58,454 nucleotides of DNA, from assembly GCA_964425625.1 (NCBI GenBank), contig CAYRMI010000002.1, forward strand, positions 1-58,454, in the 5' to 3' direction. Under the pieces are notes generated by a model that ran no database searches, was not told where the DNA came from, and saw nothing but the letters and a program-made list of their open reading frames with translations. The first letter of the stretch is position 1. Each line of letters opens with the position of its first letter. Origin of the DNA: an uncultured Candidatus Saccharibacteria bacterium (GTDB lineage Bacteria > Patescibacteriota > Minisyncoccia > Phycocordibacterales > UBA918). Shown here piece after piece: positions 437 to 54,637 of this stretch. A program made the position numbers and the translations under genes.

Positions 437-2408
437 TTTCCCCACACCGACTATCGCTGGTACCTTAACCGGTAGTTCAGCTTTCAATAATTTCAATCTC
501 GCCGATGGCGCGCGGGTTTTTAGTAGCAGTGCTTCCACTTCTAACTTAACTATGGCTAGCTCCACGAGAATAGAAACCAACGCCAACCTTAGTGTGGCAG
601 GAACCCTAACCGCCAACCCCGGCACCACCCTCACCTTGGCCTCTGGCGCTACCACCACCGTCGGTACCCTAAACCTCCTTGGTGCCGCTAGTAGCACCAT
701 CACTCTTAATAGCACCGCCTCCGGCACACAGTCCAACTTTGTCCTCACTGGTTCATCAGCGGTGACATATACAACTATCAAAGACAACACTGCCTGTGGT
801 AGTGTCGGTGGTGTCATCGATGTATCGGGGGCTAATAACACCGATGGTGGCAACACCACCTGCTGGACCTTTGTGGCGGAAACAGGTTCTTCAAGTCTAG
901 CCTTAGCGCAGTCATATACTTTCTATACCGGAGAAGCCACCACCACCCTTGGTACTATCACTATCACCGACGCCCTGACCCCAACCATTACCGCGGCTAA
1001 CAACCTTCGCCTCACCATCGCCACTACGACCACCAACTTCCGGTTTGATACGGGGGTCACCACCCCGACCTTTGGTGGTAGTGCTTCCGGTAAAGTAGCG
1101 GGTACAGTTTCCTATGAAGACGGGGGAGCCACCCTCCTCATCGACGTCACAGAGAACTTCGCGGCTACCAATACGCTCACTATCGCTGGTATACAAGTCG
1201 GTAGCTTTGGCACTGTTTCTACCACCACCAGCCAGCTTCAGCTACACACCGATGGTAACAGTACCGGTACCCCAGCGGCACAATCAAACGAAACCTTCCG
1301 GATCACTGGCCTGCTGACACTAGCCAACCACGACGCCGGACAAGCCGATAACCAATTTAGTTACCAAAACCGGACTGAGGCTACCTTCTTTGCTTTCAAG
1401 CTTACCCCGACCGGAGAAACAGCCACCATGACGGATATGGTCGTGACCTTAAGTGGTATACAACCAGGGTTAACCACCGAGAAACTCCATACCTTCAAAC
1501 TCTACCGCGATAACAACAACGATGGACTACTAGATGGTGGTGATACACTGATTGATAGCAACGGTATCATGACTATCAATGGTCAACATGGCGCCATCAC
1601 CTGGAGCACCGACTTCCTCGCTACCACTACTTCTGACTACCTCATCATCGCCGACACGGTGGGGATTGATTTTGATGATGCGATTGTCTTCTTACTCCCC
1701 ACCACTGGTATCACCGCCACGGGTCAAACCTCAAACTACCAACCCACCATCAGCAGTACCGTCTCAGACATCCAACACCACCGTTTCCGCAGTGGTGGAG
1801 GCAAAAGCAACGCTGACCGGGTGGGTGGCGCACCACCAGCGGGGGGTAGTGTGGAGACTGGGGGTGAGAGTGGTGGCGGGAATCAGACTGGCGAAGTACC
1901 GGAAGGGGAGAACATCGTCGCTGATCCTGACTTTAGACAGCCTACTAACACCGGTACCCCAGACAACCAATGGACTAACCCGACTAACGCCTATAACTCC
2001 GATGGGGTCTACGCCACCGCTTCTTCCACCAACTTCAGTCAATCGTACTACAACTTCGGCTTTGGTATCCCCCAGGGCAACGCCATCAGTGGTATAGCAG
2101 TGAAGCTCGATGCTTCTGGTACTACCGCCGCGGGCACCATTGACGTTGCGCTCTCGTGGGACAATGGCAATTCATACACCACCGCCAAAGCCACCCCCAC
2201 CTTAAGTGGCGGCGACATTGTCTACACCGTGGGCGGGCCAGGCGACACCTGGGGACGAAACTGGAGCCAGAGTGAGTTTGCGAATGGTACCTTTATCCTG
2301 CGTATTAAGGCAGAGCCTTCAAGCAACACCCTTAAGCTCGATGCTCTCGAGGTACGCGTCCATCACCAAGCCACCGGTGGCGGGAGTGGTGGCGGGGGGA
2401 GGAGTTAG
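3..2408 (+). CDS. 3' part of a large secreted/surface protein (5'-truncated by window edge): 51-aa beta-propeller-like repeats, Thr/Gly-rich beta-sandwich domains, Gly-rich C-terminus
   Basis: Frame +3 is open from base 3 through the ORF-track start (552) to TAG 2408 (hand translated). Repeat unit KVGGDAVNSSWADATYEYVYSLTSHNGTLYAGLGSTAGDAEVWAYNGSTWS. Dx[DN]xDG-type motif DNNNDG. Ends GGGSGGGGRS. Confidence 0.85.
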   Translation, partial: VGGDAVNSSWADATYEYVYSLTSHNGTLYAGLGSTAGDAEVWAYNGSTWSKVGGDAVNSSWADATYEYVFSLTSHNGTLYAGLGSNAGDAEVWAYNGSTWSKVGGDAVNSSWADATYEYVYSLTSHNGTLYAGLGSTAGDAEVWAFPTPTIAGTLTGSSAFNNFNLADGARVFSSSASTSNLTMASSTRIETNANLSVAGTLTANPGTTLTLASGATTTVGTLNLLGAASSTITLNSTASGTQSNFVLTGSSAVTYTTIKDNTACGSVGGVIDVSGANNTDGGNTTCWTFVAETGSSSLALAQSYTFYTGEATTTLGTITITDALTPTITAANNLRLTIATTTTNFRFDTGVTTPTFGGSASGKVAGTVSYEDGGATLLIDVTENFAATNTLTIAGIQVGSFGTVSTTTSQLQLHTDGNSTGTPAAQSNETFRITGLLTLANHDAGQADNQFSYQNRTEATFFAFKLTPTGETATMTDMVVTLSGIQPGLTTEKLHTFKLYRDNNNDGLLDGGDTLIDSNGIMTINGQHGAITWSTDFLATTTSDYLIIADTVGIDFDDAIVFLLPTTGITATGQTSNYQPTISSTVSDIQHHRFRSGGGKSNADRVGGAPPAGGSVETGGESGGGNQTGEVPEGENIVADPDFRQPTNTGTPDNQWTNPTNAYNSDGVYATASSTNFSQSYYNFGFGIPQGNAISGIAVKLDASGTTAAGTIDVALSWDNGNSYTTAKATPTLSGGDIVYTVGGPGDTWGRNWSQSEFANGTFILRIKAEPSSNTLKLDALEVRVHHQATGGGSGGGGRS

Positions 2409-2462
2409 AGGGGCTAGGAGGGCGAGTGGTTGGGGTTGGCTTGTTTAACAACCTAAACCAAA

Positions 2463-2500
2463 TCCCCTAAATGTACCTGTTAACAGGTACATTTAGGGGA
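2463..2500. repeat. 38-bp perfect palindrome, family A copy 1
   Basis: TCCCCTAAATGTACCTGTT|AACAGGTACATTTAGGGGA. Same core at 30676 and 31124. Confidence 0.95.
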
Positions 2501-2526
2501 GGGTCATTGAAGATGGTCAAAAAAAG

Positions 2527-2557
2527 AGGTGGCAAAATCCGAAGGATTTTGCCACCT
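2527..2557. terminator. 14-bp hairpin, likely intrinsic terminator
   Basis: AGGTGGCAAAATCC-GAA-GGATTTTGCCACCT downstream of the large surface gene, preceded by an A-run. Confidence 0.55.
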
Positions 2558-2668
2558 TAGGCCACTACCTAATGGCACAAGTTATACACAATATAACTAT
2601 TAATAGGTAAAAATCTGGCAGTAGTTTGCTAAAATAGAACAGTAAAGTAATTATTAAAAAAACAAAAT

Positions 2669-3382
2669 ATGAACACACAAAATATTATTAATGCCACTTG
2701 GCAATCCTTAGTTGCTTCCACTCTAGCCATCGCTATAGTGGCGGTTAGCTTCTTTATTATTGAGCCTCAGATGGGTCAGGCAGCCACTAGTGGTCCATTT
2801 ACCATCAAGACTACTATTACCGATGAGATATCCTTTACCGCTAATGCTACCAACGTCACAGCGACTGGTTCTATTAATGGTATTACTGGAGGTACCGCTA
2901 ACGGTTCGACTAGTGTCACAGTGCGTACCAACAGCAACACTGGCTATAGTATGACGATTGCTTTTGCAAGCAACTCGACAGACAATGCCATGAAAGGAGA
3001 TGTGAGTGGTAGTACAGCAATTCACGACTATCCAGCAGTATCATCGACTACGCCAACCTTCCTGTTTTCCACCGCTAGTACCTCTTCGGTGTTTGGTTAT
3101 ACCGTGAGTGCGGATGCCGGTGCTACTGACTTGGCCCAGGCTTTCTTGGATGATGGAGCTGATTGTAATATTCCAATCGGTAGTGGTGGAGCTTACACCG
3201 CAGACCGCTGTTGGATGGAACCAATGACTAGTGCTTTTGAAATAATCGATCGAGGCACAGCGGCTGCTTCTGGCGCCACTAGTACGATCCACTTCCGCGT
3301 GCATGTACCAAACCTACCTAACCCATCGCTAGTAGCCGACACTTATACGGCCACGGCAACCTTGACAGCAGTTAACCAGTAG
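2669..3382 (+). CDS. Secreted WxL-like / pilin-like beta-sandwich protein (paralog 1)
   Basis: N-terminal hydrophobic signal ending near PQMGQA. Motifs GGTANGSTSVTV, GYSMTI and C-terminal TYTATATLTA resemble WxL-fold strands. One Cys pair. Confidence 0.6.
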   Translation: MNTQNIINATWQSLVASTLAIAIVAVSFFIIEPQMGQAATSGPFTIKTTITDEISFTANATNVTATGSINGITGGTANGSTSVTVRTNSNTGYSMTIAFASNSTDNAMKGDVSGSTAIHDYPAVSSTTPTFLFSTASTSSVFGYTVSADAGATDLAQAFLDDGADCNIPIGSGGAYTADRCWMEPMTSAFEIIDRGTAAASGATSTIHFRVHVPNLPNPSLVADTYTATATLTAVNQ

Positions 3383-3402
3383 CGATATTGTAGTCACATC
3401 TT

Positions 3403-4461
3403 ATGACTACAAAAATGTGTGTTCAATTTTGTATCTCTATTGTAGTAGCTGGTTTGGCCATAAGTTTTTTGCCTAACGTTGGTCTAGCCCAAGACAACAC
3501 CCCCACTTCTGATGAGGGTGTTGTTGCTAGTTCTACCGAAATAACTAGTCCAGTGGTGGTGGAGGAAATCCCTTGGTTTCGTATCGAGAAGTTGACGGGT
3601 GATAATCAAGCGATCGGTGACTTTGTGGTGGGGCCAGGGCGGGCGGAGATAGAAGTAAAGCCTGGTCAGACGGTGATTTATGAAATATCAGTCTCAAACC
3701 GAATTAGTGATAATCGCATCTTTGAGCTGACGGTGGAAGACGTGGCTGGTTCAAATGATGCCAGTCAAGCGGTGGTATTGCTCGGTGACGCGGTCGGACC
3801 ATACACGATTAAGGACTATATTTCTTTCCCTAAAAATACCTTCACCCTTCGCCTAGGGGAAAGAGCTCGTATTCCAGTAACGGTATCCATACCACCAAAC
3901 GCTGCTCCGGGTGGCTATTATGGTAGTGTGCTCGTGTCTACAGTGCAGGAAGAGCCCTTAAGTGAAGGACAGACCACTAGGTCACCTATTGTCGCTAGGG
4001 TGGGGACACTATTTTTTGTGACGGTGCCTGGGGAAATGAAATATGAAGGAGAAACCAAAGCTTTGACTCTAAAAAATAATCGTTTTTGGTATGAGAAAGG
4101 ACCGATAGTTTTAAATGTAATTTACGAAAATACTGGTTCGGTTCACCTTAATCCCTACGGCGAATTGCGCATCAAGAATCTGTTTGGTGAGGAGGTAGGT
4201 TTTGTTGAGTTGGAACCTTGGTTTGTTCTCCCTAAATCACTTCGTTCACGAGAAGTGACTTGGGATCGAGAATTGTTGTTTGGGCGCTATGTGGCTAGTG
4301 TCAGCATTAACCGTGGCTACGAGGATATAGTCGATGAGCAATCAGTGGTCTTTTGGGTCTTGCCGTGGAAAGTGGTAGCTGGTATTTTTGCTCTGGTATT
4401 TATCATCTTCTTTGGTTTTAGAATCTTCTTTAGAACGTTTGAGTTTAAACGCAAGACTTAG
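3403..4461 (+). CDS. DUF916/DUF3324-like (CscA-like) membrane-anchored protein
   Basis: Signal peptide; IPVTVSIPPNAAPGGYYGSVLVS...RVGTLFFVTVPG; NTGSVHLNPYGELRIKNLFG; C-terminal TM helix followed by basic tail FKRKT. Confidence 0.65.
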   Translation: MTTKMCVQFCISIVVAGLAISFLPNVGLAQDNTPTSDEGVVASSTEITSPVVVEEIPWFRIEKLTGDNQAIGDFVVGPGRAEIEVKPGQTVIYEISVSNRISDNRIFELTVEDVAGSNDASQAVVLLGDAVGPYTIKDYISFPKNTFTLRLGERARIPVTVSIPPNAAPGGYYGSVLVSTVQEEPLSEGQTTRSPIVARVGTLFFVTVPGEMKYEGETKALTLKNNRFWYEKGPIVLNVIYENTGSVHLNPYGELRIKNLFGEEVGFVELEPWFVLPKSLRSREVTWDRELLFGRYVASVSINRGYEDIVDEQSVVFWVLPWKVVAGIFALVFIIFFGFRIFFRTFEFKRKT

Positions 4462-4470
4462 CTTGTCTCT

Positions 4471-5238
4471 ATGACGCTTCGTTCCTTTACAATCTTGACA
4501 GCAGAAACTCTAGTCTTGACGGGAGTAATTTTGTCTATTTTGTTAGTTGGGGAAGCACAGGTACGGACTAGTACGAGCTATAAGTTAGAAAGTGATAGTA
4601 TCAACTTCGGTGGTGGTTTATCGTCTTCTTCCAACTATTCCCTAGAAAGTACCGGAGGGGAGATAGCAACCGGTAAGTCAGACAGTGCTTCCTATAGCTT
4701 GAGGGCTGGCTATCAGCAGATGCAAGAGGTGTTTATTAGTATGACAGCCCCTGGAAATGTAATAATGACGCCCAGTATAGGCGGTCTTACTGGCGGTACG
4801 GCTAATGGTTCAACTAGTGTGAATGTAATAACGGATAGTCCAAGTGGCTATTCACTAACCATCAGGGCTGAGAGTTCGCCTGCTATGCAAAAAGGGGCTG
4901 ATACTATAAATGACTACGTACCAGAAGCGTCACCCAATCCCGACCCGTCATTTATCACCGCTGCTACTGATGCCCACTTCGGCTTTTCGCCCCAAGGGTC
5001 TGATGTGGTTTTGCGATACCGAAATAATAGTTCAATTTGTAGTGCTGGTTCTCTTAGTACGGCAGAGGTTTGTTGGGATGGGTTTTCAACGTCAGAAAAA
5101 TTACTAGCCTCTGGGGGTGACAATCAACCCAGTGGCGCCACTACCACGCTTTACTTTAAGGTAGAACTGGGCGGTAATGTGACTAGACCGCCAGGAGCTT
5201 ATATTGCCACTACTACCTTAACTGCTTTGCCACTATGA
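4471..5238 (+). CDS. Secreted WxL-like protein (paralog 2) with extra Ser/Tyr-rich N-terminal segment
   Basis: Shares GGTANGSTSV, GYSLTI, a Cys pair, SGATTTLYF and GAYIATTTLTA with 2669-3382. Confidence 0.6.
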   Translation: MTLRSFTILTAETLVLTGVILSILLVGEAQVRTSTSYKLESDSINFGGGLSSSSNYSLESTGGEIATGKSDSASYSLRAGYQQMQEVFISMTAPGNVIMTPSIGGLTGGTANGSTSVNVITDSPSGYSLTIRAESSPAMQKGADTINDYVPEASPNPDPSFITAATDAHFGFSPQGSDVVLRYRNNSSICSAGSLSTAEVCWDGFSTSEKLLASGGDNQPSGATTTLYFKVELGGNVTRPPGAYIATTTLTALPL

Positions 5239-6815
5239 AATATGGTATTGTTTTGCTGTTAATTTTTGCCATATTTATCCCAAGCGCTACTTCGGCAGTG
5301 ACAAGTGATTTTAATATTAGGGCCTTTGTGGGGGATGATATAACTCCGCCCAGTACCCCAGCTTTACTGGCTGCTATGCCAGTGGCGCAAACTCAGATAG
5401 ATGTTGACTGGGGTACTTCAACCGATAACTGGATTTTGGGCGGGTACGTATTGCTGCGCGATGGTCTACCGATTGCGACCACTACTTTGACAAATTATAG
5501 CGATACTGGCTTGACCCCAGCCACGCTTTATAATTATGAGGTTTATGCTTTTGATACCGCCAATAATATTTCTTCCACCTCAAATAGCCTGGCGACCAGT
5601 ACTTTTGCCGTACCAGTTACTCCCACCACCACACCAGCGGTGAGTAAGCCACCGTCAGGTACACAGATACTGATGCTAGAGAATTTCTCGAGCACGGAGA
5701 ATGAGACGTCGGTAAATCTAGCCTGGGACACCAACATGCCGTCTCGCTTCACTCTGCGCTGGGGGCGAACTGATACTTATAATGGTGGTTATATTGAAAG
5801 TGATGTCTATCAGTTAAATCATAAGACAATCATTTCAGATTTGGAACCAGGAACAGTCTACCTTTTTGAACTAATCGGACACTCGGCGTTGGGGCGTACT
5901 GTGCTACTTAAAACGGGTGAATTTACAACTGCTACCAGAGAAGCTAATCGTATTGTACCAAACGTGGAGCGACTAGTGGCGGAAGTGGTCAAAACTGACG
6001 TCCGTTTACAGTTTGCTCTACCGGCTACTGAAGTCGGGGCGCGTGTGCGGGTTGTTAGGAGTCATTTTGGTTGGCCGGCTAGTCCTTATGATGGGGCAAT
6101 TATTTTTGAAGGTAATGCAAATGAAATCTGGGACAGGCAGGCCTTGCGTGATCATAAAGTCCAATATTATACCGTCTTTGTTATTGGCGAGGATGGTAGC
6201 CTTTCTTCCGGGGCAGTGGTGGTGGCCAGATGGGTGGCTGATACAGAAATGGGTACAGGGGAGGGAGAAGAAAAAGATGATAAAGTCGTTGTGCCGATAC
6301 AGCCAGAGCCAGAAATTCTCCTCCCGCTCTTAAGTGAAGATGAGATTGTTATTAAACAAGGAGATAATATCTTTACTTTTTTAACTGAAGCAATTGCACT
6401 CTCTTATCATGAACCATTCAGTATCAGTATTAGTAAAGACGCCTTACCTAAACACCTGAAGGTAATTATAGTGACCTTACTCGATCCAACCGATCAAAGA
6501 CAGAGTTACTCTTTCTTACTTAGGATTAACAAGGACGGGACAGCTTACGAAGCAATGATTGCTCCACTTGAGGTGGCTGGAACTTCACGCTTGCAAGTTG
6601 AAGTATTTGATTTTGAGCAGTTGGTAGTAGGCCGGTATCGTAAGCAAATAGATTTTGTTCTAACCGAAAAGATCACTCCAACAGTCGTTTTCCCGGATGC
6701 ACTAATTCAACCGTTCAAAAATACTTCTGGATTTATATTTGGGACAGGGGTGTTTGCGCTTTTTATTTGGCTATTTTTCTGGCGTCGCGGGCGTAAAACT
6801 GAGGATAAGCTCTAG
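5235..6815 (+). CDS. Fibronectin type III-like repeat surface protein with C-terminal membrane anchor
   Basis: FN3-like WGTSTDN...YSDTGLTPATLYNYEVYAFD and ISDLEPGTVYLFEL. Signal peptide; C-terminal TM plus RRGRK. ATGA overlap with the upstream stop. Confidence 0.75.
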   Translation: MKYGIVLLLIFAIFIPSATSAVTSDFNIRAFVGDDITPPSTPALLAAMPVAQTQIDVDWGTSTDNWILGGYVLLRDGLPIATTTLTNYSDTGLTPATLYNYEVYAFDTANNISSTSNSLATSTFAVPVTPTTTPAVSKPPSGTQILMLENFSSTENETSVNLAWDTNMPSRFTLRWGRTDTYNGGYIESDVYQLNHKTIISDLEPGTVYLFELIGHSALGRTVLLKTGEFTTATREANRIVPNVERLVAEVVKTDVRLQFALPATEVGARVRVVRSHFGWPASPYDGAIIFEGNANEIWDRQALRDHKVQYYTVFVIGEDGSLSSGAVVVARWVADTEMGTGEGEEKDDKVVVPIQPEPEILLPLLSEDEIVIKQGDNIFTFLTEAIALSYHEPFSISISKDALPKHLKVIIVTLLDPTDQRQSYSFLLRINKDGTAYEAMIAPLEVAGTSRLQVEVFDFEQLVVGRYRKQIDFVLTEKITPTVVFPDALIQPFKNTSGFIFGTGVFALFIWLFFWRRGRKTEDKL

Positions 6816-12772: not shown

Positions 12773-12787
12773 ACTTCACTCTAGACA

Positions 12788-12831
12788 GAAACAAAGACAC
12801 CTAGTCGGATACGACTAGGTGTCTTTGTTTC
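12788..12831 (+). terminator. 20-bp hairpin after rplY
   Basis: GAAACAAAGACACCTAGTCG-GATA-CGACTAGGTGTCTTTGTTTC. Confidence 0.75.
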
Positions 12832-12861
12832 GGTTGGGGTTTGGTATAATGATTTTTAATT

Positions 12862-22962: not shown

Positions 22963-23018
22963 GCTTAAGTCACAAAAATACCTTTGCTTAAAAGCAAAGG
23001 TATTTTTGTTACTTAAGC
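22963..23018. terminator. Long hairpin between convergent genes
   Basis: ACAAAAATACCTTTGCTT..AAGCAAAGGTATTTTTGT extended by GCTTAAGT/ACTTAAGC. Confidence 0.75.
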
Positions 23019-28548: not shown

Positions 28549-28593
28549 AAAACAAAAAGACCGTTCCCTTAATGGGAACGGTCTTTTTGTTTT
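28549..28593. terminator. Bidirectional terminator
   Basis: 20-bp stem AAAACAAAAAGACCGTTCCC-TTAAT-GGGAACGGTCTTTTTGTTTT between convergent genes. Confidence 0.8.
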
Positions 28594-30394: not shown

Positions 30395-30596
30395 ACAAAT
30401 AAACGCCCGAGCGAAAATATGACAGGAGTCATATTTTCGCTCGGGCGTTCTTTTCCTAAGAAAGTCGCGGTTCCACCGAGTTTCCGGTCAGTAAATTGAC
30501 CGCTTCTAAGCTACAGATTAGGGAATTTTTTCTTCCAACAACCTTTCGGTTAACCGAAAGGTTGTCTAGTGTTTGGTAGACACCACAATCTCTGTT
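30395..30596 (-). ncRNA. T-box riboswitch leader of thrS
   Basis: Minus strand: CTCGG-TGGAACC-GCG...CGC-CCGAG antiterminator. Overlapping 22-bp terminator (30402-30449) followed by TTTATTT. Stem III CGGTCA/TGACCG precedes the T-box. Confidence 0.85.
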
Positions 30597-30675: not shown

Positions 30676-30715
30676 ACCCGCTAAATCTACCTGTTAACAG
30701 GTAGATTTAGCGGGT
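30676..30715. repeat. 40-bp perfect palindrome, family A copy 2
   Basis: ACCCGCTAAATCTACCTGTT|AACAGGTAGATTTAGCGGGT; contains the stop codon of the TrpR-like gene. Confidence 0.95.
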
Positions 30716-31111
30716 CTTGAATGCGCGATTATATATTCTGGACCTGGCTCGAGAACTTACTTTTGCGAGAATTAAGTCTTGTATTAGTTCCACAAATTCG
30801 TTTTTTTCTTTTTTGCTTAGACAGTTGAGTAGGTTGTCAAATTGTCCGTCTTCATATTGTTTATAAATTCTTTGTGCGGTTGAGATACTTACACCCAAAG
30901 CCAGGGCTGTGCGGTAGGTAGAGAAATCATCATTAAAAAGAAGTGCAGCAGCGAATCTTTTGATAATCATTATTTTTTCCGCTTCAGTAAAGAGATCATT
31001 GATAAATACAGAAGCAGTTTGGTTGTTAAGTTTTGAGATTAGCTGAACTAATTTCTGGTGGGCGTGTTTATAGTCAGCACTATCGATTTGCAATTTTGAG
31101 ACGTTGGTCAT
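30707..31111 (-). CDS. TrpR-like (YerC/YecD family) helix-turn-helix regulator
   Basis: LFTEAEKIMIIKRFAAALLF...STYRTALALGVSISTAQRI fits the TrpR-family LT..E...L..R......L....SY..I....G.S..TI.R pattern. Confidence 0.75.
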   Translation of the reverse strand: MTNVSKLQIDSADYKHAHQKLVQLISKLNNQTASVFINDLFTEAEKIMIIKRFAAALLFNDDFSTYRTALALGVSISTAQRIYKQYEDGQFDNLLNCLSKKEKNEFVELIQDLILAKVSSRARSRIYNRAFKTR

Positions 31112-31117
31112 TGTTTA

Positions 31118-31159
31118 AGTATACCCCTAAATCTACCTGTTAACAGGTAGATTTAGGGG
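31118..31159 (-). promoter_or_regulatory. -10 box (TATACT, 31118-31123) abutting 36-bp palindrome family A copy 3 (31124-31159); candidate operator
   Basis: CCCCTAAATCTACCTGTT|AACAGGTAGATTTAGGGG covers the spacer/-35 zone. The ATG is 6 nt after the -10 box. Confidence 0.7.
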
Positions 31160-31194
31160 ATAATTTTTTGTCGTCAGTATTTTTTAACGATTGA

Positions 31195-34100
31195 TTATTT
31201 TTGAGATTGAGGATTTGGGCTAGAGCTAAGGAGCTTAGCACGATCTATGGCAATCGAGGGTTCTTCGTTGCGGATGGTTAGTTTACCTTTGATAGCGATA
31301 CAACTGCCCAAAGTAAATAAAAGTTTTAGTTCAGTGTAGGTCTTGGGGAAGGCAACCATTTCGATTTGGTCATGAGTATCAGCTAACGTAACAAAGGCCA
31401 TTTTTTCGCCCTTTTTGGTAATGAGTTCGCGCACAGCCACCACCATTCCAGCGGTAACTAATTCACCCTTAAGACGAAGTATCGCCAGCTCATTTTTTTC
31501 GGTGACGGCACTTATAATTGAGCCGATACTGGGACGTTTGGCCAGTTCATCCATATAAGCATCAAGTGGATGTCCGGATACATAGACTCCTAGCAGATCT
31601 TTTTCCCAAGTGAGCATTTGGTTTTTGGGAATTGCTTCGGACGGAATCAGGTTTAATGTTTCCTCATTGTTAAGTCCACCAAAAAGTGAGACCTGAGATG
31701 ATTCTTGGCCGGCCATATGCTCCTTGTTAAAAGTCAGTAGCAAATCAAGATTGGCGTACATTGCTCCACGGTCATTAAGTGAGTCAAAGGCACCGGCCAT
31801 GATAAGGGCTTCGAGCGATTTTTTGTTTAAACTACGGTCATGAATGCGGGTGAGAAAATTGGAGAGAGAAGTAAAAGATCCTTTGGCTTTACGTTCGGCA
31901 ATAATTGCTTCTGCAATACCTTCACCAAAATTCTTGATAGTAGCCAGTCCGAATCGAATTGTTTCCTTGCCAGGTACAACCGTAAAGTCTGCAAATGATT
32001 CATTGATATCTGGTGGCAGTACTTCAATCCCCATACGCCCACATTCGCGGATAATTTCGGCGATTTTATCGTTATCGCCAGAGTCGGCCGTGAGGACGGC
32101 CGACATATACTCGACCGGAAAGTTAGCTTTCATGTACGCTGTCTGATAGGCTACGCGACCATAACTAGCAGCGTGAGCCTTATTGAAACCATAGGCAGCG
32201 AAGGGTTCAATTAGGCTCCAAAGCTTTTGGGCGAGATTTGGTGAAAGTTTGCCATACTCTATAAAGCCAGTAAGAAGTTTGTTTTTTTCGGCCGCCATTA
32301 CTTCAGGGATTTTCTTACCCATGGCTTTACGCAACATGTCGGCCTCGAGCCAACTATAACCAGCCAAGATGCGAGCAATAGCCATAACATCGTCTTGGTA
32401 GGTGACTACTCCATAAGAACGATTAAGGACATTCTCCAGCCTAGGGTCTAAATAGGTCACGAGCGTAGGGTTGTGTTTGCGTTCTATGTATTGCGGAATA
32501 GATTCCATTGGTCCAGGACGGTAAAGGGCTACCATGGCGTTTATATCGTGTATAGTAGAAGGCTTCAGTTGCTTGAGAAAGGCGGTCATACCTCCGCCGT
32601 TGAGTTGAAAGAGGCCCATAGTCTCGCCCCGGGCTAGGATGTTGAAAGTTTTTTGGTCATTAAGTGGAATGTTTTCGATATCGACTGCCACATTACGGAT
32701 TTTTTTTACTCGCTTGACGGCATCAGCCAAAATAGCTAAGTTTTTTATACCCAAAAAATCAAACTTAAGTAGACCAACACCATCTTCACCGACACTTTTC
32801 ATCTCATATTGAGTGATAAATTTACCGGACTTAGGGTCTGGTTGGATGGGTACGAATTTATTAAGTGGTTCCGGAGCAATCACTACACCAGCGGCATGCA
32901 CACCAAGGTGACGAACCCGACCCTCGATACGTTTAGCTAGGTCAATCACTTCCCGAGACTCAGCGTCTTTTTTGTAGAGTTCAGCGAGGTCTGGTTCTAT
33001 TTCTAGGGCTTTGGTGATGGTCATAGGGAAACCCTGACTACCGATGGGAATGAGTTTGGCTATGCGGTCGCCAGTGGAGTAAGGGTGACCAAGCGCGCGG
33101 GCCACGTCGCGCACAGCGGCACGGGCCATCATGGTACCAAAGGTACCAATTTGCGCGACCTTGTCGGCACCGTATTTTGTCTTGGCGTATTCAATTATTT
33201 CATCACGCCGATTATCAGCAAAGTCCATATCAATATCAGGTGCTGAAGGTCGCTCGGGATTGAGGAAGCGTTCGAAGGGAAGATTATATTCAAGTGGATC
33301 TACGTTGGTAATACCAAGTACGTAGGTAGTGAGAGAGCCGGCCACCGAACCGCGTATGGTAGTAAGGATACCGCGTTCGCGCGATTCACGGAGTAAGTCA
33401 CCGACTACTAAGAAGTATTTGGCGTAACCTTTGGTCTTGATCACACTAAGTTCATAATCAAGTCGGTCCTTAATGGCTTTATCATTTGGGTCTAGTTTGC
33501 GCCAAGTCAGACCAGAGTAGGCTGTGGCCATAAGTTCTTCGTCTGGATTTTTACCACTCTCAATCGGGTAATCAGGAAAATACCAATGTGTGCCAATTTC
33601 GATTTCAACCTGGCAAGACTCAGCAATTTTCACTGTATTGGACAAGGCCTCAGGGTTGTCCTTGAAGTACTCTTTGGCCTGCTCTTGGGTAATGAAGGAA
33701 AAATCTTCACCGGAGTCTATGTCGCTTGTGGTATCTACTACGCCACCGTTTTGGATTTTGATTAGTACCTCGCGAGCAATTCTATCGTCGGGCTTCAGGT
33801 AGTAGACATCGTGAGCAGCAACTAGTGGGGTGTTAGTTTGATCGGCTAAGTTAATAATTTTTGTTTGGATTTTTTGGTGGTCCAAGACTTCCGGGTGATG
33901 TGATATTTCCAAAAAGCAATTTTCACCAAAAACCCTTTTGTACCAATCGAGTCTTTCCGAGGCGTGCTCTGTTCGATCGTCTTTATAGGCTCTAGCTACT
34001 TCTCCGGCAAAGGAGGGTATGATGCAGACTATATCTTCCGCATATCGTTTTAGAAGTTCGTCATCGACCCGCGGCCGATAATAAAAACCTTCAAGGTTTG

Positions 34101-34443
34101 AGTCGGTGACTAACTTGATAAGATTTTGGTAGCCGGTAAATGTTTTAGCCAAGAGGACCAGGCGGGCTCGGGGCTTATCAATAGCTTCCTTGTTATGGCG
34201 GGTGCGGGGAGCTAAGTACGCATCAAGACCAATGATCGGTTTGATCCCTTCTTTGGTACAGGCTTTATAGAAATCAATCGCTCCGTAAAGAGCACCATTG
34301 TCAGTTAGAGCCAAGGCTGTTTGATTATCGGCTTTGGCCTCATGCGCTAGTTCCTTTGGGGTAGGGAGAGCGTTTAGAAGTGAGTAGTGCGAGTGTACAT
34401 GAAGGTGGACAAAGCTTGAGTTTAGGGGTTTCTGGTCAGACAT
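31195..34443 (-). CDS. dnaE: DNA polymerase III alpha subunit
   Basis: HLHVHSHYSLL (PHP), RGSVAGSL, FERFLNPER..PDIDMDF, KFDFLG, YGFNKAH, OB-fold KKGEKMAFV. Confidence 0.97.
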   Translation of the reverse strand: MSDQKPLNSSFVHLHVHSHYSLLNALPTPKELAHEAKADNQTALALTDNGALYGAIDFYKACTKEGIKPIIGLDAYLAPRTRHNKEAIDKPRARLVLLAKTFTGYQNLIKLVTDSNLEGFYYRPRVDDELLKRYAEDIVCIIPSFAGEVARAYKDDRTEHASERLDWYKRVFGENCFLEISHHPEVLDHQKIQTKIINLADQTNTPLVAAHDVYYLKPDDRIAREVLIKIQNGGVVDTTSDIDSGEDFSFITQEQAKEYFKDNPEALSNTVKIAESCQVEIEIGTHWYFPDYPIESGKNPDEELMATAYSGLTWRKLDPNDKAIKDRLDYELSVIKTKGYAKYFLVVGDLLRESRERGILTTIRGSVAGSLTTYVLGITNVDPLEYNLPFERFLNPERPSAPDIDMDFADNRRDEIIEYAKTKYGADKVAQIGTFGTMMARAAVRDVARALGHPYSTGDRIAKLIPIGSQGFPMTITKALEIEPDLAELYKKDAESREVIDLAKRIEGRVRHLGVHAAGVVIAPEPLNKFVPIQPDPKSGKFITQYEMKSVGEDGVGLLKFDFLGIKNLAILADAVKRVKKIRNVAVDIENIPLNDQKTFNILARGETMGLFQLNGGGMTAFLKQLKPSTIHDINAMVALYRPGPMESIPQYIERKHNPTLVTYLDPRLENVLNRSYGVVTYQDDVMAIARILAGYSWLEADMLRKAMGKKIPEVMAAEKNKLLTGFIEYGKLSPNLAQKLWSLIEPFAAYGFNKAHAASYGRVAYQTAYMKANFPVEYMSAVLTADSGDNDKIAEIIRECGRMGIEVLPPDINESFADFTVVPGKETIRFGLATIKNFGEGIAEAIIAERKAKGSFTSLSNFLTRIHDRSLNKKSLEALIMAGAFDSLNDRGAMYANLDLLLTFNKEHMAGQESSQVSLFGGLNNEETLNLIPSEAIPKNQMLTWEKDLLGVYVSGHPLDAYMDELAKRPSIGSIISAVTEKNELAILRLKGELVTAGMVVAVRELITKKGEKMAFVTLADTHDQIEMVAFPKTYTELKLLFTLGSCIAIKGKLTIRNEEPSIAIDRAKLLSSSPNPQSQK

Positions 34444-34468
34444 GGTTTTTAGATTATAGCATTCGCTC

Positions 34469-34619
34469 GGGATTGCCTCAAAAAAAAGACACAGATAAAA
34501 GCCCCAGCGGGCTTTTTCTTATGCTCGGCGACCGGTCCTGCCACAGCGCTTCGCGCAATTAAGGGGTGGCAGGCACCGGCTCCGGTCGCCTGCGCAATGT
34601 CTTTTTTTGAGGCAATCCC
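34469..34619. repeat. Structured dispersed repeat copy 1 (119-bp core 34486-34604 inside about 22-bp terminal inverted arms)
   Basis: Core is 118/119 identical to 35335-35453. Arms GGGATTGCCTC(A8)GACA / TGTC(T7)GAGGCAATCCC. Confidence 0.95.
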
Positions 34620-34633
34620 TCGCTCTTTGGTGG

Positions 34634-34670
34634 AAGTTTTTCTGTAGAGGCTTAGCCTCCGCAGAAACTT
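34634..34670. repeat. Imperfect palindrome, family B (core GAGGCTTAGCCTC)
   Basis: GAGGCTTAGCCTCC at 34647 is identical to 42052. Confidence 0.6.
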
Positions 34671-34717
34671 ATAAATAGCTGGTAGGAAAATTTTGCAGGT
34701 AAGGTATAATTTTTGAA

Positions 34718-35347
34718 ATGTCTAAAGCTAAATACCTGGTGGGAATTGACGAAGCTGGACGTGGGCCTTTGGCTGGGCCGGTGGCGGTGGGGGTGGTTTG
34801 TGTGCCGAGGGATTTTAATTGGCGGTTAATCCCGGGAGTGGGTGATTCTAAGCAAGTGAAGGAGAAAAATCGCGAAGCGATTTTTCTCCTAGCCAAAAGA
34901 CTAAAGCAGGAAAAAGTGTTTGATTACGCCGTGACACTGGTTAGTGCAAAAATAATTGACCAAAAGGGAATTAGTAAAGCAGTACAAATTGGTATCGATA
35001 AAGGTCTTAGGAAGTTGGCTCTGTCGGAGAATGAGGTGGAGGTGAAACTCGATGGTTTGTTGCAGGCCCCGGCAGAATACCGAAACCAAGAGACAATTAT
35101 TAAAGGTGATGATAAGGAGTTGGTGATTGGTTTAGCGTCGATTTTGGCCAAGGTAACGCGTGATACATATATGAAGAAGTTGGCCAAGAATAATGAGTAC
35201 TTGGCTTATGAATTTGCTACTCATAAAGGTTATGGGACGAAAATGCACCGGGAAGCTATCGTCCAAAACGGTCTATCCGGAGAACATCGTGTTAGCTTTT
35301 GTAAGAGTTTACTCGCTCTTGAGTACCTCAAACCAAGACACAGATAA
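34718..35347 (+). CDS. rnhB: Ribonuclease HII
   Basis: GIDEAGRGPLAGPV, DSKQ, IKGD, ASILAKVTRD, HKGYGT. The stop codon lies inside repeat copy 2. Confidence 0.96.
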   Translation: MSKAKYLVGIDEAGRGPLAGPVAVGVVCVPRDFNWRLIPGVGDSKQVKEKNREAIFLLAKRLKQEKVFDYAVTLVSAKIIDQKGISKAVQIGIDKGLRKLALSENEVEVKLDGLLQAPAEYRNQETIIKGDDKELVIGLASILAKVTRDTYMKKLAKNNEYLAYEFATHKGYGTKMHREAIVQNGLSGEHRVSFCKSLLALEYLKPRHR

Positions 35348-35466
35348 AAGCCCCAGCGGGCTTTTTCTTATGCTCAGCGACCGGTCCTGCCACAGCGCTT
35401 CGCGCAATTAAGGGGTGGCAGGCACCGGCTCCGGTCGCCTGCGCAATGTCTTTGTTTGCGGTGCTC
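35321..35466. repeat. Structured dispersed repeat copy 2
   Basis: Same 119-bp core; different, imperfect outer arms GAGTACCTCAAACCAAGACA / TGTCTTTGTTTGCGGTGCTC. Confidence 0.95.
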
Positions 35467-35566
35467 CTTCGCTATATAAATCGAAGCCCGTTTTGTAGAA
35501 GAAATTCTTAAGGAAAATCTGTAAGAGTCCATGATTGAGGTCTTTAATCTAATCCAGACAATTTAG

Positions 35567-35594
35567 TTGCTTTTTTGCAAGGATTTGCTATAGT
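35567..35594 (+). promoter_or_regulatory. rpmF promoter
   Basis: TTGCTT-16-TATAGT with TG extension (same boxes as the rpmE promoter), 9 nt before the ATG. Confidence 0.6.
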
Positions 35595-35603
35595 TTCCCC
35601 ACT

Positions 35604-35876
35604 ATGGTTATTCGAATGCGACATACGCGGTCACATACCGCCAATCGACGCTCACATCACGCTCTTAAGGCCCCTAATTTGGCTGTATGTAAGAATTGTG
35701 AATCAGAGCATCGTCCACACCACATGTGCTTAAATTGTGGTTATTACAAGGGCAGAGTAGTGATTGATTTGCTAGAAAAGAAAAAAGGTCGTGAGGCTAG
35801 ATTGCAAGCCAAGCGGGAAGCTATCCGTGGAGAAGTGGCGGTTGCACCAACCGAAACTCCAGCTAAGCAAAAATAA
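35604..35876 (+). CDS. rpmF: 50S ribosomal protein L32 with C-terminal extension
   Basis: RRSHHAL, CKNC...HHMCLNCGYYKGR. Confidence 0.93.
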   Translation: MVIRMRHTRSHTANRRSHHALKAPNLAVCKNCESEHRPHHMCLNCGYYKGRVVIDLLEKKKGREARLQAKREAIRGEVAVAPTETPAKQK

Positions 35877-35975
35877 ACTCTAGTGTAAGCCCCGTCTGGG
35901 GGCTTTGTGGATTTTGCACATTGTCAGTCTTGTTACGTGTTAAACTGTAAGCAGTAAAAGTTAGTACATTAAAAT

Positions 35976-36878
35976 ATGGCCAATCGACACGTTTCAAGAA
36001 GTATCGTTCTCCAATCACTCTTTGAGTGGGATTTAAATGCAATAGAAAGAAAAGCCGTTATTGAAGTTTTAGATAGAAATATTGAGGAGTTTGCGCCCAA
36101 TAAGACAGACCGACCATTTATGGAACGTCTCCTTGATGGCATTTTAGGCAAGCAAACAGAGTTGGATTTAGTTATTACCAAGGCCGCCCCAGAGTGGCCA
36201 ATTGAACGTATCTCACCGGTAGACCGTAATATCCTACGTCTAGGTCTCTATGAGCTTCTATTTGCTGACCGCTCTGAGGTGCCAGCCAAGGTAGCTATCA
36301 ATGAAGCGATTGAGTTGGCTAAGCAATTTGGTGGCGATAATAGTAGCCGTTTTGTTAATGGAGTACTTGGGGCAGTTTACAAGGAAATAGGTGAGCCCGG
36401 TAAGGAGGAAACCAGTAAGCGCAAGAAGCGAGAATTGCCATTTGACCAAATGCCAATTCAACGATTGGCAGGAGCGGTGGTTTACGCTGAGGAAAATGGT
36501 GAGATGTACTTGGCTCTGGTGCATGACATTTTTGGCCACTGGACGTTATCTAAGGGTAAAATTGAAGAAAACGAAAGTGTCGAAGCGGGCGCGGTCCGGG
36601 AACTCAAGGAAGAAATGGGTCTAGATGTCACGATTGAGGCGGAACTCGGCAAAAATGAATACGTAGCTTCACACCCAGAATTGGGCAAAGTGCGCAAGCA
36701 GGTTCACTACTATCTAGCTTCTTCTCCACACACCGAAATAACCCTAGAGCAAAAGGGAGGTTTGGATGATGCTCGGTGGTTTAGAGTAGCTGATATCCTG
36801 GAACTAAACTTCTACGAAGATATCCTACCTATCGTCACCAAGGCGGTGACTATGTTGGTTGGCAGACGCAGTAAATAA
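35976..36878 (+). CDS. nusB: NusB antitermination factor fused to a C-terminal NUDIX hydrolase
   Basis: NusB: DRNILRLGLYEL, VAINEAIELAKQFG, FVNGVLG. NUDIX box GKIEENESVEAGAVRELKEEMGL (36555-36623). Confidence 0.92.
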   Translation: MANRHVSRSIVLQSLFEWDLNAIERKAVIEVLDRNIEEFAPNKTDRPFMERLLDGILGKQTELDLVITKAAPEWPIERISPVDRNILRLGLYELLFADRSEVPAKVAINEAIELAKQFGGDNSSRFVNGVLGAVYKEIGEPGKEETSKRKKRELPFDQMPIQRLAGAVVYAEENGEMYLALVHDIFGHWTLSKGKIEENESVEAGAVRELKEEMGLDVTIEAELGKNEYVASHPELGKVRKQVHYYLASSPHTEITLEQKGGLDDARWFRVADILELNFYEDILPIVTKAVTMLVGRRSK

Positions 36879-45956: not shown

Positions 45957-45994
45957 CAAAGTAAAGACCAGACATCCGTCTGGTCTTTACTTTG
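45957..45994. repeat. 17-bp perfect hairpin in a hairpin-rich intergenic region
   Basis: CAAAGTAAAGACCAGAC-ATCC-GTCTGGTCTTTACTTTG. Confidence 0.8.
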
Positions 45995-54590: not shown

Positions 54591-54637
54591 AAAGGCCACC
54601 GAGCACCTCCCCTTTGGGGAGGTGCTCGGTGGCCTTT
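54591..54637 (+). terminator. 22-bp perfect hairpin after rpoC
   Basis: AAAGGCCACCGAGCACCTCCCC-TTT-GGGGAGGTGCTCGGTGGCCTTT. Confidence 0.8.

Follow-up and report, generated by a model that had tools for sequence, protein, structure and literature searches.

In the window studied here, a 58,454-nucleotide stretch (contig CAYRMI010000002.1 of assembly GCA_964425625.1) that holds housekeeping DNA of a Patescibacteria/Paceibacteria bacterium of the candidate phyla radiation (CPR), the ribonuclease HII (RNase HII) gene rnhB is bracketed by two copies of a structured non-coding repeat. This repeat is probably (we put the chance at about 55%) a lineage-restricted palindromic insertion similar to miniature inverted-repeat transposable elements (MITEs), which would have been inserted twice and whose cores would have been homogenised by gene conversion. 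Like a MITE, it has inverted ends and a duplication at its borders, measures about 151 bp without coding capacity, and is missing from both sites in the nearest relative with available DNA (L082). CPR genomes are small, and mobile DNA is considered to be scarce in them. A clean miniature insertion element that appears to have remodelled the end of a housekeeping gene as well as part of the promoter of the replicase gene, and whose cores evolve in concert while its arms co-vary, can be viewed as a useful if modest case study of the reshaping of streamlined genomes.

Two copies of a structured element flank rnhB

The cores of the two copies (34486-34604 and 35335-35453) are identical at 118 of 119 nucleotides (nt), as the original prediction had stated, the sole difference being G34527/A35376. 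They lie in direct orientation on either side of rnhB, with a separation of 849 bp. A 64-nt piece of the core matches at just these two places within the window, and none of 100 shuffles gave such a match. Beyond the cores, a similarity of about 70% runs on through the arms out to TCGCT(C) at either side. Each unit is therefore laid out as TCGCT(C), arm, core, arm and TCGCT(C), the arms and core together making up the 151 bp. The arms of copy 1 form a perfect inverted repeat of 18 bp (18/18; 34469-34486 with 34602-34619) that extends through AGACA/TGTCT. Those of copy 2 have their own sequence, which is self-complementary but imperfect; each copy thus possesses its own self-complementary outer arms, as had been claimed. 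The open reading frames (ORFs) found in the element are overlapping and spurious.

The minimum-free-energy folds of both copies show the same three-way structure, closed by the arms, and contain all three core stems that had been proposed, namely AAAAGCCC/GGGCTTTT, GGCGACCGG/CCGGTCGCC and CCTGCCAC/GTGGCAGG. The first one forms the short hairpin of the core, AAAAGCCC-CAGC-GGGCTTTT. The two others form a long two-part helix, with GGCGACCGG/CCGGTCGCC as its outer part, CCTGCCAC/GTGGCAGG as its inner part and GCGC-TTC-GCGC at its tip. The RNA fold reaches -80.8 kcal/mol for copy 1 (z = -8.2) and -71.4 kcal/mol for copy 2 (z = -6.2), and a fold with DNA parameters gives z = -9.5; no shuffle equals any of these values. 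Furthermore, the minus strand of the element folds equally well.

Both copies are present in the genome

A duplication of one copy by the assembler can be practically dismissed, since nothing speaks for it beyond the general risk of metagenome assemblies. The arms and flanks differ between the two copies. Moreover, an independent NCBI assembly (GCA_020049755.1, contig JAHZTO010078122, locus L001) spans positions 32500-36756 with 99.93% identity and has both copies. In run X1 (SRR13355621), the 119-nt core is a unitig of its own with a depth of 13.5, the three flanking contigs have depths of 7.1, 6.3 and 6.7, and no further flank is attached to the core unitig. Since the core has twice the depth of its flanks and no other flank, the genome carries two copies. 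In addition, separate contigs cross each copy with its own flanks: X26 (34368-34710) traverses copy 1 and X28 (35281-35633) traverses copy 2.

Empty sites in the nearest relative

The gene order of the locus is thrS(-), a small helix-turn-helix (HTH) gene(-), dnaE(-), rnhB(+), rpmF(+), nusB-NUDIX, rnc, pilins and smc, and the dnaE<>rnhB>rpmF order is widespread in the group. The best relatives of the RNase HII in GTDB genomes share 56-59% identity with it, and the top match among 5.8 billion proteins reaches 70%. The nearest relative with available DNA, L082 (GCA_041736805.1), is syntenic, and its ThrS, DnaE, RNase HII, L32, NusB-NUDIX and RNase III are 70-83% identical to those encoded here. 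Neither site carries the repeat in L082, and the dnaE-rnhB spacer measures 115 nt there versus 275 nt here, a difference that corresponds to the size of the element. Analogous repeats flanking rnhB were found in none of 11 further relatives examined. The element shows only marginal similarity to the spacers of L082; since the top match is a terminator upstream of rpmF, we take this as generic terminator likeness.

The empty sites of L082, the inverted arms and the flanking duplications together give the anatomy of a non-autonomous inverted-repeat element. The borders (TCGCTC/TCGCTC for copy 1 and TCGCT/TCGCT for copy 2) resemble target-site duplications, with the same sequence at both sites. 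We therefore propose an element with a G+C-rich 119-nt core, flanked by arms of about 17-23 bp and folding into a three-way structure, which was probably inserted twice into the ancestral dnaE<>rnhB>rpmF locus of one Paceibacteria lineage, each time at TCGCT(C) and with duplication of that sequence. It would have been mobilised in trans by a transposase encoded outside this window. Copy 2 would have replaced the final codons and the stop of rnhB, and copy 1 the sequence upstream of the dnaE -10 box. Subsequently, the cores, being 849 bp apart in direct orientation, would have been held near-identical by gene conversion. The arms would have diverged and been re-symmetrised, arm against arm, either by templated mutation (quasipalindrome or template-switch) or by selection for pairing.

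The rnhB-rpmF spacer also differs between these genomes, with 450-580 nt in L082 and many relatives versus about 130 nt of native sequence here (35479-35603). In L082, an apparent small Cys-rich ORF lies between the two genes (5780-6080). Given the short native spacer, the element-bearing lineage seems to have lost a small gene from this stretch.

Effect of the probable insertions on rnhB and dnaE

As predicted, copy 2 supplies the stop codon of rnhB, whose ORF terminates at the TAA in 35345-35347, inside core 2. The Pfam RNase_HII domain (residues 8-196) is intact despite the element-encoded tail, and 13 residues follow the SFCK motif of RNase HII here versus 3-6 in relatives. If the flanks of copy 2 are joined with a single TCGCT, rnhB ends in ...SFCKSLLAI* (TTA CTC GCT ATA TAA) and encodes 201 amino acids (aa), and the RNase HII proteins of relatives have 197-201 aa.

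Copy 2 also places a terminator-like hairpin straight after the new stop codon. The short hairpin followed by TCTT can be read there, although a consensus terminator scan made no call and the contig from a cDNA library continues through it. This 353-nt contig, from run X28, has a depth of 26 and no strand information; it extends from the 3' end of rnhB through copy 2 and the spacer into the start of rpmF. Run X28 has no contig at all for the flanks of copy 1. No reads turned up in the approximately 1% that was sampled from two raw-read runs of the same study. These data fit a transcription of copy 2 with read-through of the terminator-like hairpin, copy 1 being located in an untranscribed gap between divergent promoters.

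Another explanation is a functional structured motif, rather than a mobile element, kept by selection in two copies. It could be a bidirectional terminator or insulator, or a stem cleavable by RNase III that sets the ends of the rnhB and rpmF transcripts or their stability. The very stable folds of both strands, the avoidance of helix-breaking substitutions (see below), the hairpin followed by TTTTTCTT that begins at the rnhB stop codon and the location of rnc two genes downstream would all be expected from such a motif. The cDNA contig over copy 2 and the start of rpmF agrees with it too, the body of rnhB being barely assembled. However, copy 1 lies between the divergent promoters of dnaE and rnhB, where no known transcript crosses it and where its flanks are devoid of RNA contigs. 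Furthermore, the hairpin was not called by the terminator scan, the element has no Rfam match, the relatives do without it and the RNA evidence is one contig in one run. We consider this explanation rather unlikely.

Upstream of dnaE, the left arm of copy 1 indeed gives TTGAGG 17 bp from the TATAAT on the minus strand, the promoter-like site matching 10 of the 12 consensus positions. L082 has kept the dnaE -10 box at 9 nt from the ATG, but with TAGCAA as the upstream hexamer. The -35-like hexamer of copy 1 would be better than what presumably stood upstream of the -10 box before. The proposed co-option of the element as a promoter part is nevertheless unproven, since a perfect, TG-extended -10 box may need no -35 and L082 has the same -10 box with a different hexamer. 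We infer that the element may have altered the expression of its neighbours. The rewriting of the rnhB end and of the dnaE promoter is an ordinary side effect of elements of this kind.

Here and in L082, -10-like hexamers are found 7-9 nt ahead of the start codons of dnaE, rnhB and rpmF. This placement leaves no room for a Shine-Dalgarno sequence and suggests that the mRNAs of these genes may be leaderless. The coordinates of these sites and of all parts of the element are given in Table 1.

Table 1. Position of the element copies, of the signals next to them and of other hairpins in the window
Feature	Position	Strand	Remark
rnhB (RNase HII, 209 aa)	34718..35347	+	from about residue 200 (LEYLKPRHR) through the stop, encoded by copy 2
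dnaE promoter-like site	34453..34481	-	TTGAGG (element arm), 17 nt, TG-extended TATAAT (native), 9 nt before ATG
Left direct repeat TCGCTC, copy 1	34463..34468	.	putative target-site duplication; aligns with the native spacer of L082
Left arm, copy 1 (GGGATTGCCTCAAAAAAA...)	34469..34485	+	holds the dnaE -35-like TTGAGG (minus strand, 34476-34481)
Core, copy 1	34486..34604	+	119 nt, 60% G+C; short hairpin 34497-34516, long helix 34527-34590
Right arm, copy 1	34605..34619	+	perfect complement of the left arm
Right direct repeat TCGCTC, copy 1	34620..34625	.	border sequence
Left direct repeat TCGCT, copy 2	35313..35317	.	within the rnhB reading frame
Left arm, copy 2 (CTTGAGTACCTCAAACC)	35318..35334	+	translated, part of the rnhB tail
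Core, copy 2	35335..35453	+	rnhB stop TAA 35345-35347, then hairpin 35346-35365 and TTTTTCTT
Right arm, copy 2 (GTTTGCGGTGCTCCT)	35454..35468	+	imperfect complement of the left arm
Right direct repeat TCGCT, copy 2	35469..35473	.	next codons ATA TAA, the presumed rnhB end before insertion
-10-like hexamer of dnaE	34453-34458		start codon 34441-34443
-10-like hexamer of rnhB	34705-34710		start 34718
-10-like hexamer of rpmF	~35589-35594		start 35604
-10-like hexamer in L082	~6166-6171		start 6181 (L082 coordinates)
Long intergenic hairpins (others exist)	12785-12834, 22963-23018, 28549-28593, 30397-30454, 45957-45994, 54591-54637		

Natural variation of cores and arms

Strain variants were rebuilt from the difference tables of the assembler and are partly composites, and covariation was counted on six of the reconstructed sequences. 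In the core, 34543A>G and 34567T>C co-occur and turn an A-T pair of the inner helix into G-C, a compensatory change, and both 34532C>T and 34587C>T yield G·U pairs. Other changes (34551, 34560, 34561, 34563, 34565 and a 3-nt deletion) fall in loops, or lie at or beside weak pairs at the base of the long helix (34525, 34592, 34593). Among the latter, 34592G>C abolishes c26-g92, a contact of one pair that the single-sequence fold contains and the consensus fold does not. The only change that breaks a helix pair is 34527G>A, seen in copy 2 of the window, and this pair is terminal. At most one or two disruptive changes among 13 events have a probability of about 0.02-0.08 in a rough binomial estimate that takes about 37% of random substitutions as disruptive. 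The compensatory pair and the two G·U pairs speak for the structure. The formal count finds a single pair with changes in both partners, and its score is equalled in 21 of 500 shuffles. The variation respects the structure in a weak but consistent way.

In the arms, three positions differ between the copies on both sides with pairing kept (T-A to G-C, G-C to A-T and A-T to C-G). In strains X28 and X35, 35328T>G restores pairing at the T·C mismatch of copy 2 but introduces L204R into the tail of the RNase HII. The arm runs of copy 1 are A9/T8 in L001 versus A8/T7 in the window. Template-switch homogenisation of inverted-repeat arms has been documented (PMC8794818, PMC8604942, PMC5941160).

Among assemblies and samples, the A/T runs of the copy 1 arms (34480-34487 and 34601-34607) vary in length, from A7 to A10 and from T7 to T8, sometimes symmetrically.

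The cores and the arms appear to have had separate histories. In X6, X17, X28 and X30, copy 2 has a G at 35376, so that both cores are probably identical there; the A of the window is a private change. One X29 contig joins the right arm of copy 1 of the window to a core with seven clustered differences; the link between arm and core lies inside a single 31-mer and hence comes from real reads. This corresponds to a conversion-like tract. Furthermore, copy 1 has an orthologue in X29 whose arms (GGGAGCACCTCAAACC) are nearer to those of copy 2 than to those of copy 1 in the window. These decoupled histories, together with cores that are 99-100% alike and arms that are about 70% alike, lead us to regard the pair as old, with gene conversion of the cores. 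The recent duplication that had been proposed is therefore doubtful.

The same data could indicate that only the 119-nt core is mobile or exchangeable. It would sit at the tip of older, site-specific palindromes, for example after a single-strand insertion targeted to hairpins of the IS200/IS605-PATE kind. The boundary of identity is indeed sharp at the core edges, core and arm histories are decoupled, subterminal hairpins exist in the core and the genome has several long perfect palindromes whose halves adjoin or are separated by a short spacer. However, the arms of both copies and of the X29 orthologue are homologous (GGGAGnnCCTCAAA..AAGACA) rather than site-specific, and L082 has no palindrome at either site. 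Moreover, removal of both arms and core restores a normal rnhB end, and the window has no TnpA-like gene (IS200/IS605 transposase). Insertion of the core alone is quite unlikely in view of these points.

Junction contigs and rearrangement between the copies

The occurrence of two identical 119-nt repeats in direct orientation about one gene had suggested that rnhB could be excised or amplified. The copies would then be recombination sites that make rnhB a cassette (excision as a circle, deletion or amplification), used by homologous recombination or by an enzyme acting on folded single strands, as for attC. Contigs of the expected types exist: X25 (1209 nt, depth 9) and X30 link the dnaE flank through one core to the flank on the rpmF side, and X17 and X27 link the 3' end of rnhB through a core to the 5' flank of rnhB. 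However, they come from k=31 (Logan) assemblies, in which a 31-mer is too short to bridge a 119-nt repeat. A contig over the core is thus always a path chosen by the assembler, and we reject the junction contigs as proof. Parental, deletion-type and circle-type contigs are similarly frequent at low depth, as expected from clipped tips at a node with two entries and two exits. For instance, X25 also has an rnhB contig (depth 6.9) that ends 100-180 nt from the cores; its ends leave short dead-ends that can be clipped, so that the repeat node becomes a single and possibly chimeric path.

Furthermore, rnhB has about the depth of its flanks in X1 and is ancestral at the locus, the window contains no integrase, and the ends of the element show no core sites of the GTTRRRY type. 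We therefore regard a role of the copies as cassette sites as very unlikely. Real rearranged forms at appreciable frequency are unproven and unlikely, and homologous deletion between the 119-bp direct repeats is possible in principle. There is likewise very little probability that the core is a new module of DNA or RNA, selected for its fold and exchanged independently of the arms, and that rnhB is a switchable cassette in natural populations. If it were so, the deletion and circle contigs of four metagenomes would be real. In practice, the 119-nt repeat is a hazard, as it makes assemblies with a short k yield artefactual contigs that lack rnhB or are circular.

Search for a family, a partner enzyme or an RNA class

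The original prediction hesitated between a REPIN- or MITE-like element and a small RNA family. The MITE-like part is borne out by the inverted arms, the direct repeats of 5-6 bp, the lack of an ORF and the empty sites; the two other parts are not. An Rfam search of the whole window at the gathering threshold returned a tRNA-Thr alone, and a search of the locus with E-values up to 10 gave nothing on the element. Neither the window nor 36 related loci nor the public collections searched contained another member of a small RNA family. Logan assemblies were the only place where the element was met; they come from wastewater, freshwater, sludge and soil metagenomes in which this species or close relatives are present.

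An element of the REPIN/REP type, mobilised by a RAYT (HUH) transposase, would also be a long non-coding repeat that forms hairpins in intergenic DNA. Nevertheless, flanking duplications are present here, whereas REPs make none, and the element is not assembled from two inverted short REPs. Two of the checks that had been suggested, a count of the core copies and a search for a HUH/RAYT gene nearby, gave two copies by depth and no such gene or any other transposase in the 58 kb scanned with Pfam. We consider a REPIN origin extremely unlikely.

Several observations nonetheless weigh against the MITE-like insertion that we favour. The presence of the same pentamer at both insertions implies either a strong target specificity or that TCGCT is part of the element. 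The abrupt fall from 99% similarity in the core to about 70% in the arms is unlike a simple recent transposition, and gene conversion must be assumed. Strict pairing of the arms is contradicted by the X6/X33 strain, where two changes disrupt pairs, and the covariation counts are weak because the rows are partly composite and were rebuilt from difference tables. Moreover, MITEs are expected in many dispersed copies, and the depth in X1 indicates only two, 849 bp apart. In agreement with this, when the window and 36 related loci (317 kb) were searched by BLAST and with a covariance model of the core, the two copies were the only matches. Three different core patterns, exact or degenerate, gave zero matches in 185,579 GTDB species genomes. 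The 78 matches of a 19-mer of the core in JGI metagenomes were all chance matches of 20-31 nt, and viral contigs as well as phages and plasmids (BLAST) gave zero matches. Pfam analysis of 40 ORFs of the window found no transposase, HUH/RAYT, integrase or recombinase, and no autonomous partner is known. In addition, a search of the literature on MITEs in Patescibacteria found nothing relevant.

Other palindromes and features of the window

A perfect palindrome, AGGAGAAAAATCGC GAA GCGATTTTTCTCCT, lies within rnhB itself (34860-34890), centred on codon E53 (peptide x-K-N-R-E-A-I-F-x'). A perfect stem of 12-15 bp is present at the same position in L082 (5214-5246), L002, L004, L005 and L019. Four further Patescibacteria found by pattern (L171, L212, L217, L281) also have it, giving at least 10 lineages in all; more distant RNase HII genes that were examined show no palindrome at that position. 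The outer bases of its arms vary by lineage and are always complementary, the mirrored codons encoding E/L, P/G, A/R or V/Y; amino acids thus change between lineages so that the stem stays paired. Its centre, GCGAAGC, is known as an unusually stable DNA mini-hairpin motif. The tip of the long helix of the element is the complement of GCGAAGC, and a T>C variant of its loop keeps a GNA triloop on the minus strand. The rnhB palindrome reflects either a functional DNA or RNA structure or a strong palindrome-homogenising mutation in a housekeeping gene. This conserved palindrome may be the more intriguing lead for studies of nucleic-acid structure or mutation bias.

The window contains other palindromes. 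A perfect palindrome of 37 nt (CCCCTAAATsTACCTGTTAACAGGTAsATTTAGGGG) occurs three times, at 2464-2500, 30678-30714 and 31124-31160, and two of these copies bracket a gene for a 134-aa HTH_23/Trp-repressor-like protein (30707-31111, minus strand) that is absent from the thrS-dnaE spacer of L082. This gene and its palindromes might represent either a regulator inserted together with its operators or a mobile module of small size. Furthermore, there are many intergenic hairpins with perfect or near-perfect stems of 16-27 bp and loops of 0-5 nt, most of which resemble bidirectional terminators with A/T tracts (Table 1). The genome hence seems unusually rich in perfect palindromes. The decamer TTCGCTCGGG, with at most one mismatch, has 10 sites in the window versus 2.5 expected, a number reached by none of 100 shuffles. 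These sites include the left junction of copy 1 (34462-34471) and the arms of a hairpin at 30397-30454 (30406-30415 and 30436-30445), but no connection between this decamer and the element could be made. Finally, a 153-nt unit is repeated three times in tandem at positions 1-459 (86-93% identity), where the G+C content is higher (0.54-0.56), and the ORFs at 552-5238 have no Pfam match.

Comparison with known systems

Like REPIN/REP sequences, the element is a hairpin-forming intergenic repeat with a conserved structure. However, REPINs are numerous pairs of inverted short REPs, with no target duplication and with a RAYT gene, and none of these traits is found here. Integron attC sites (for example the VCRs of Vibrio) are also imperfect palindromes of about 60-140 nt, lie in direct orientation around single genes and depend on structure over sequence. 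Here, conservation is in the centre and variation at the ends, which is the reverse of attC, and the gene between the copies is ancestral. By reading, the ends of the element show no R''/R' core sites (RYYYAAC...GTTRRRY), and the window has no tyrosine recombinase. Homogenisation of quasipalindromes by template switching (PMC8794818, PMC8604942, PMC5941160) accounts for arms that change in step on both sides and remain perfect complements, such as the copy 1 arms and the symmetric length variants A9/T8 versus A8/T7. Being a process of mutation rather than a family of elements, it is invoked here for the arms alone.

Rickettsia palindromic elements are likewise palindromic non-coding repeats that join a reading frame and do not destroy the protein. 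They exist in many copies and are inserted in frame inside genes, whereas here the element took the place of the two final codons of rnhB and its stop. Correia elements (CREE/NEMIS) of Neisseria are non-coding, measure about 100-155 bp, have terminal inverted repeats and a flanking duplication, and form long hairpins when transcribed. They insert beside or into gene ends, where they donate promoter hexamers and terminator-like structures. Correia elements differ from the present element by their hundreds of copies and their TA duplication (two copies and TCGCT(C) here), by the lack of any sequence similarity and by their occurrence in a different phylum; in addition, a G+C-rich branched core lies here between short arms. 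Nevertheless, both share their size, the lack of coding capacity, the inverted ends, the flanking duplication, the insertion at gene ends and the hairpin. Similarly, ERIC sequences are hairpin-forming inserts at gene ends that give promoter and terminator-like pieces, as does the element that flanks rnhB.

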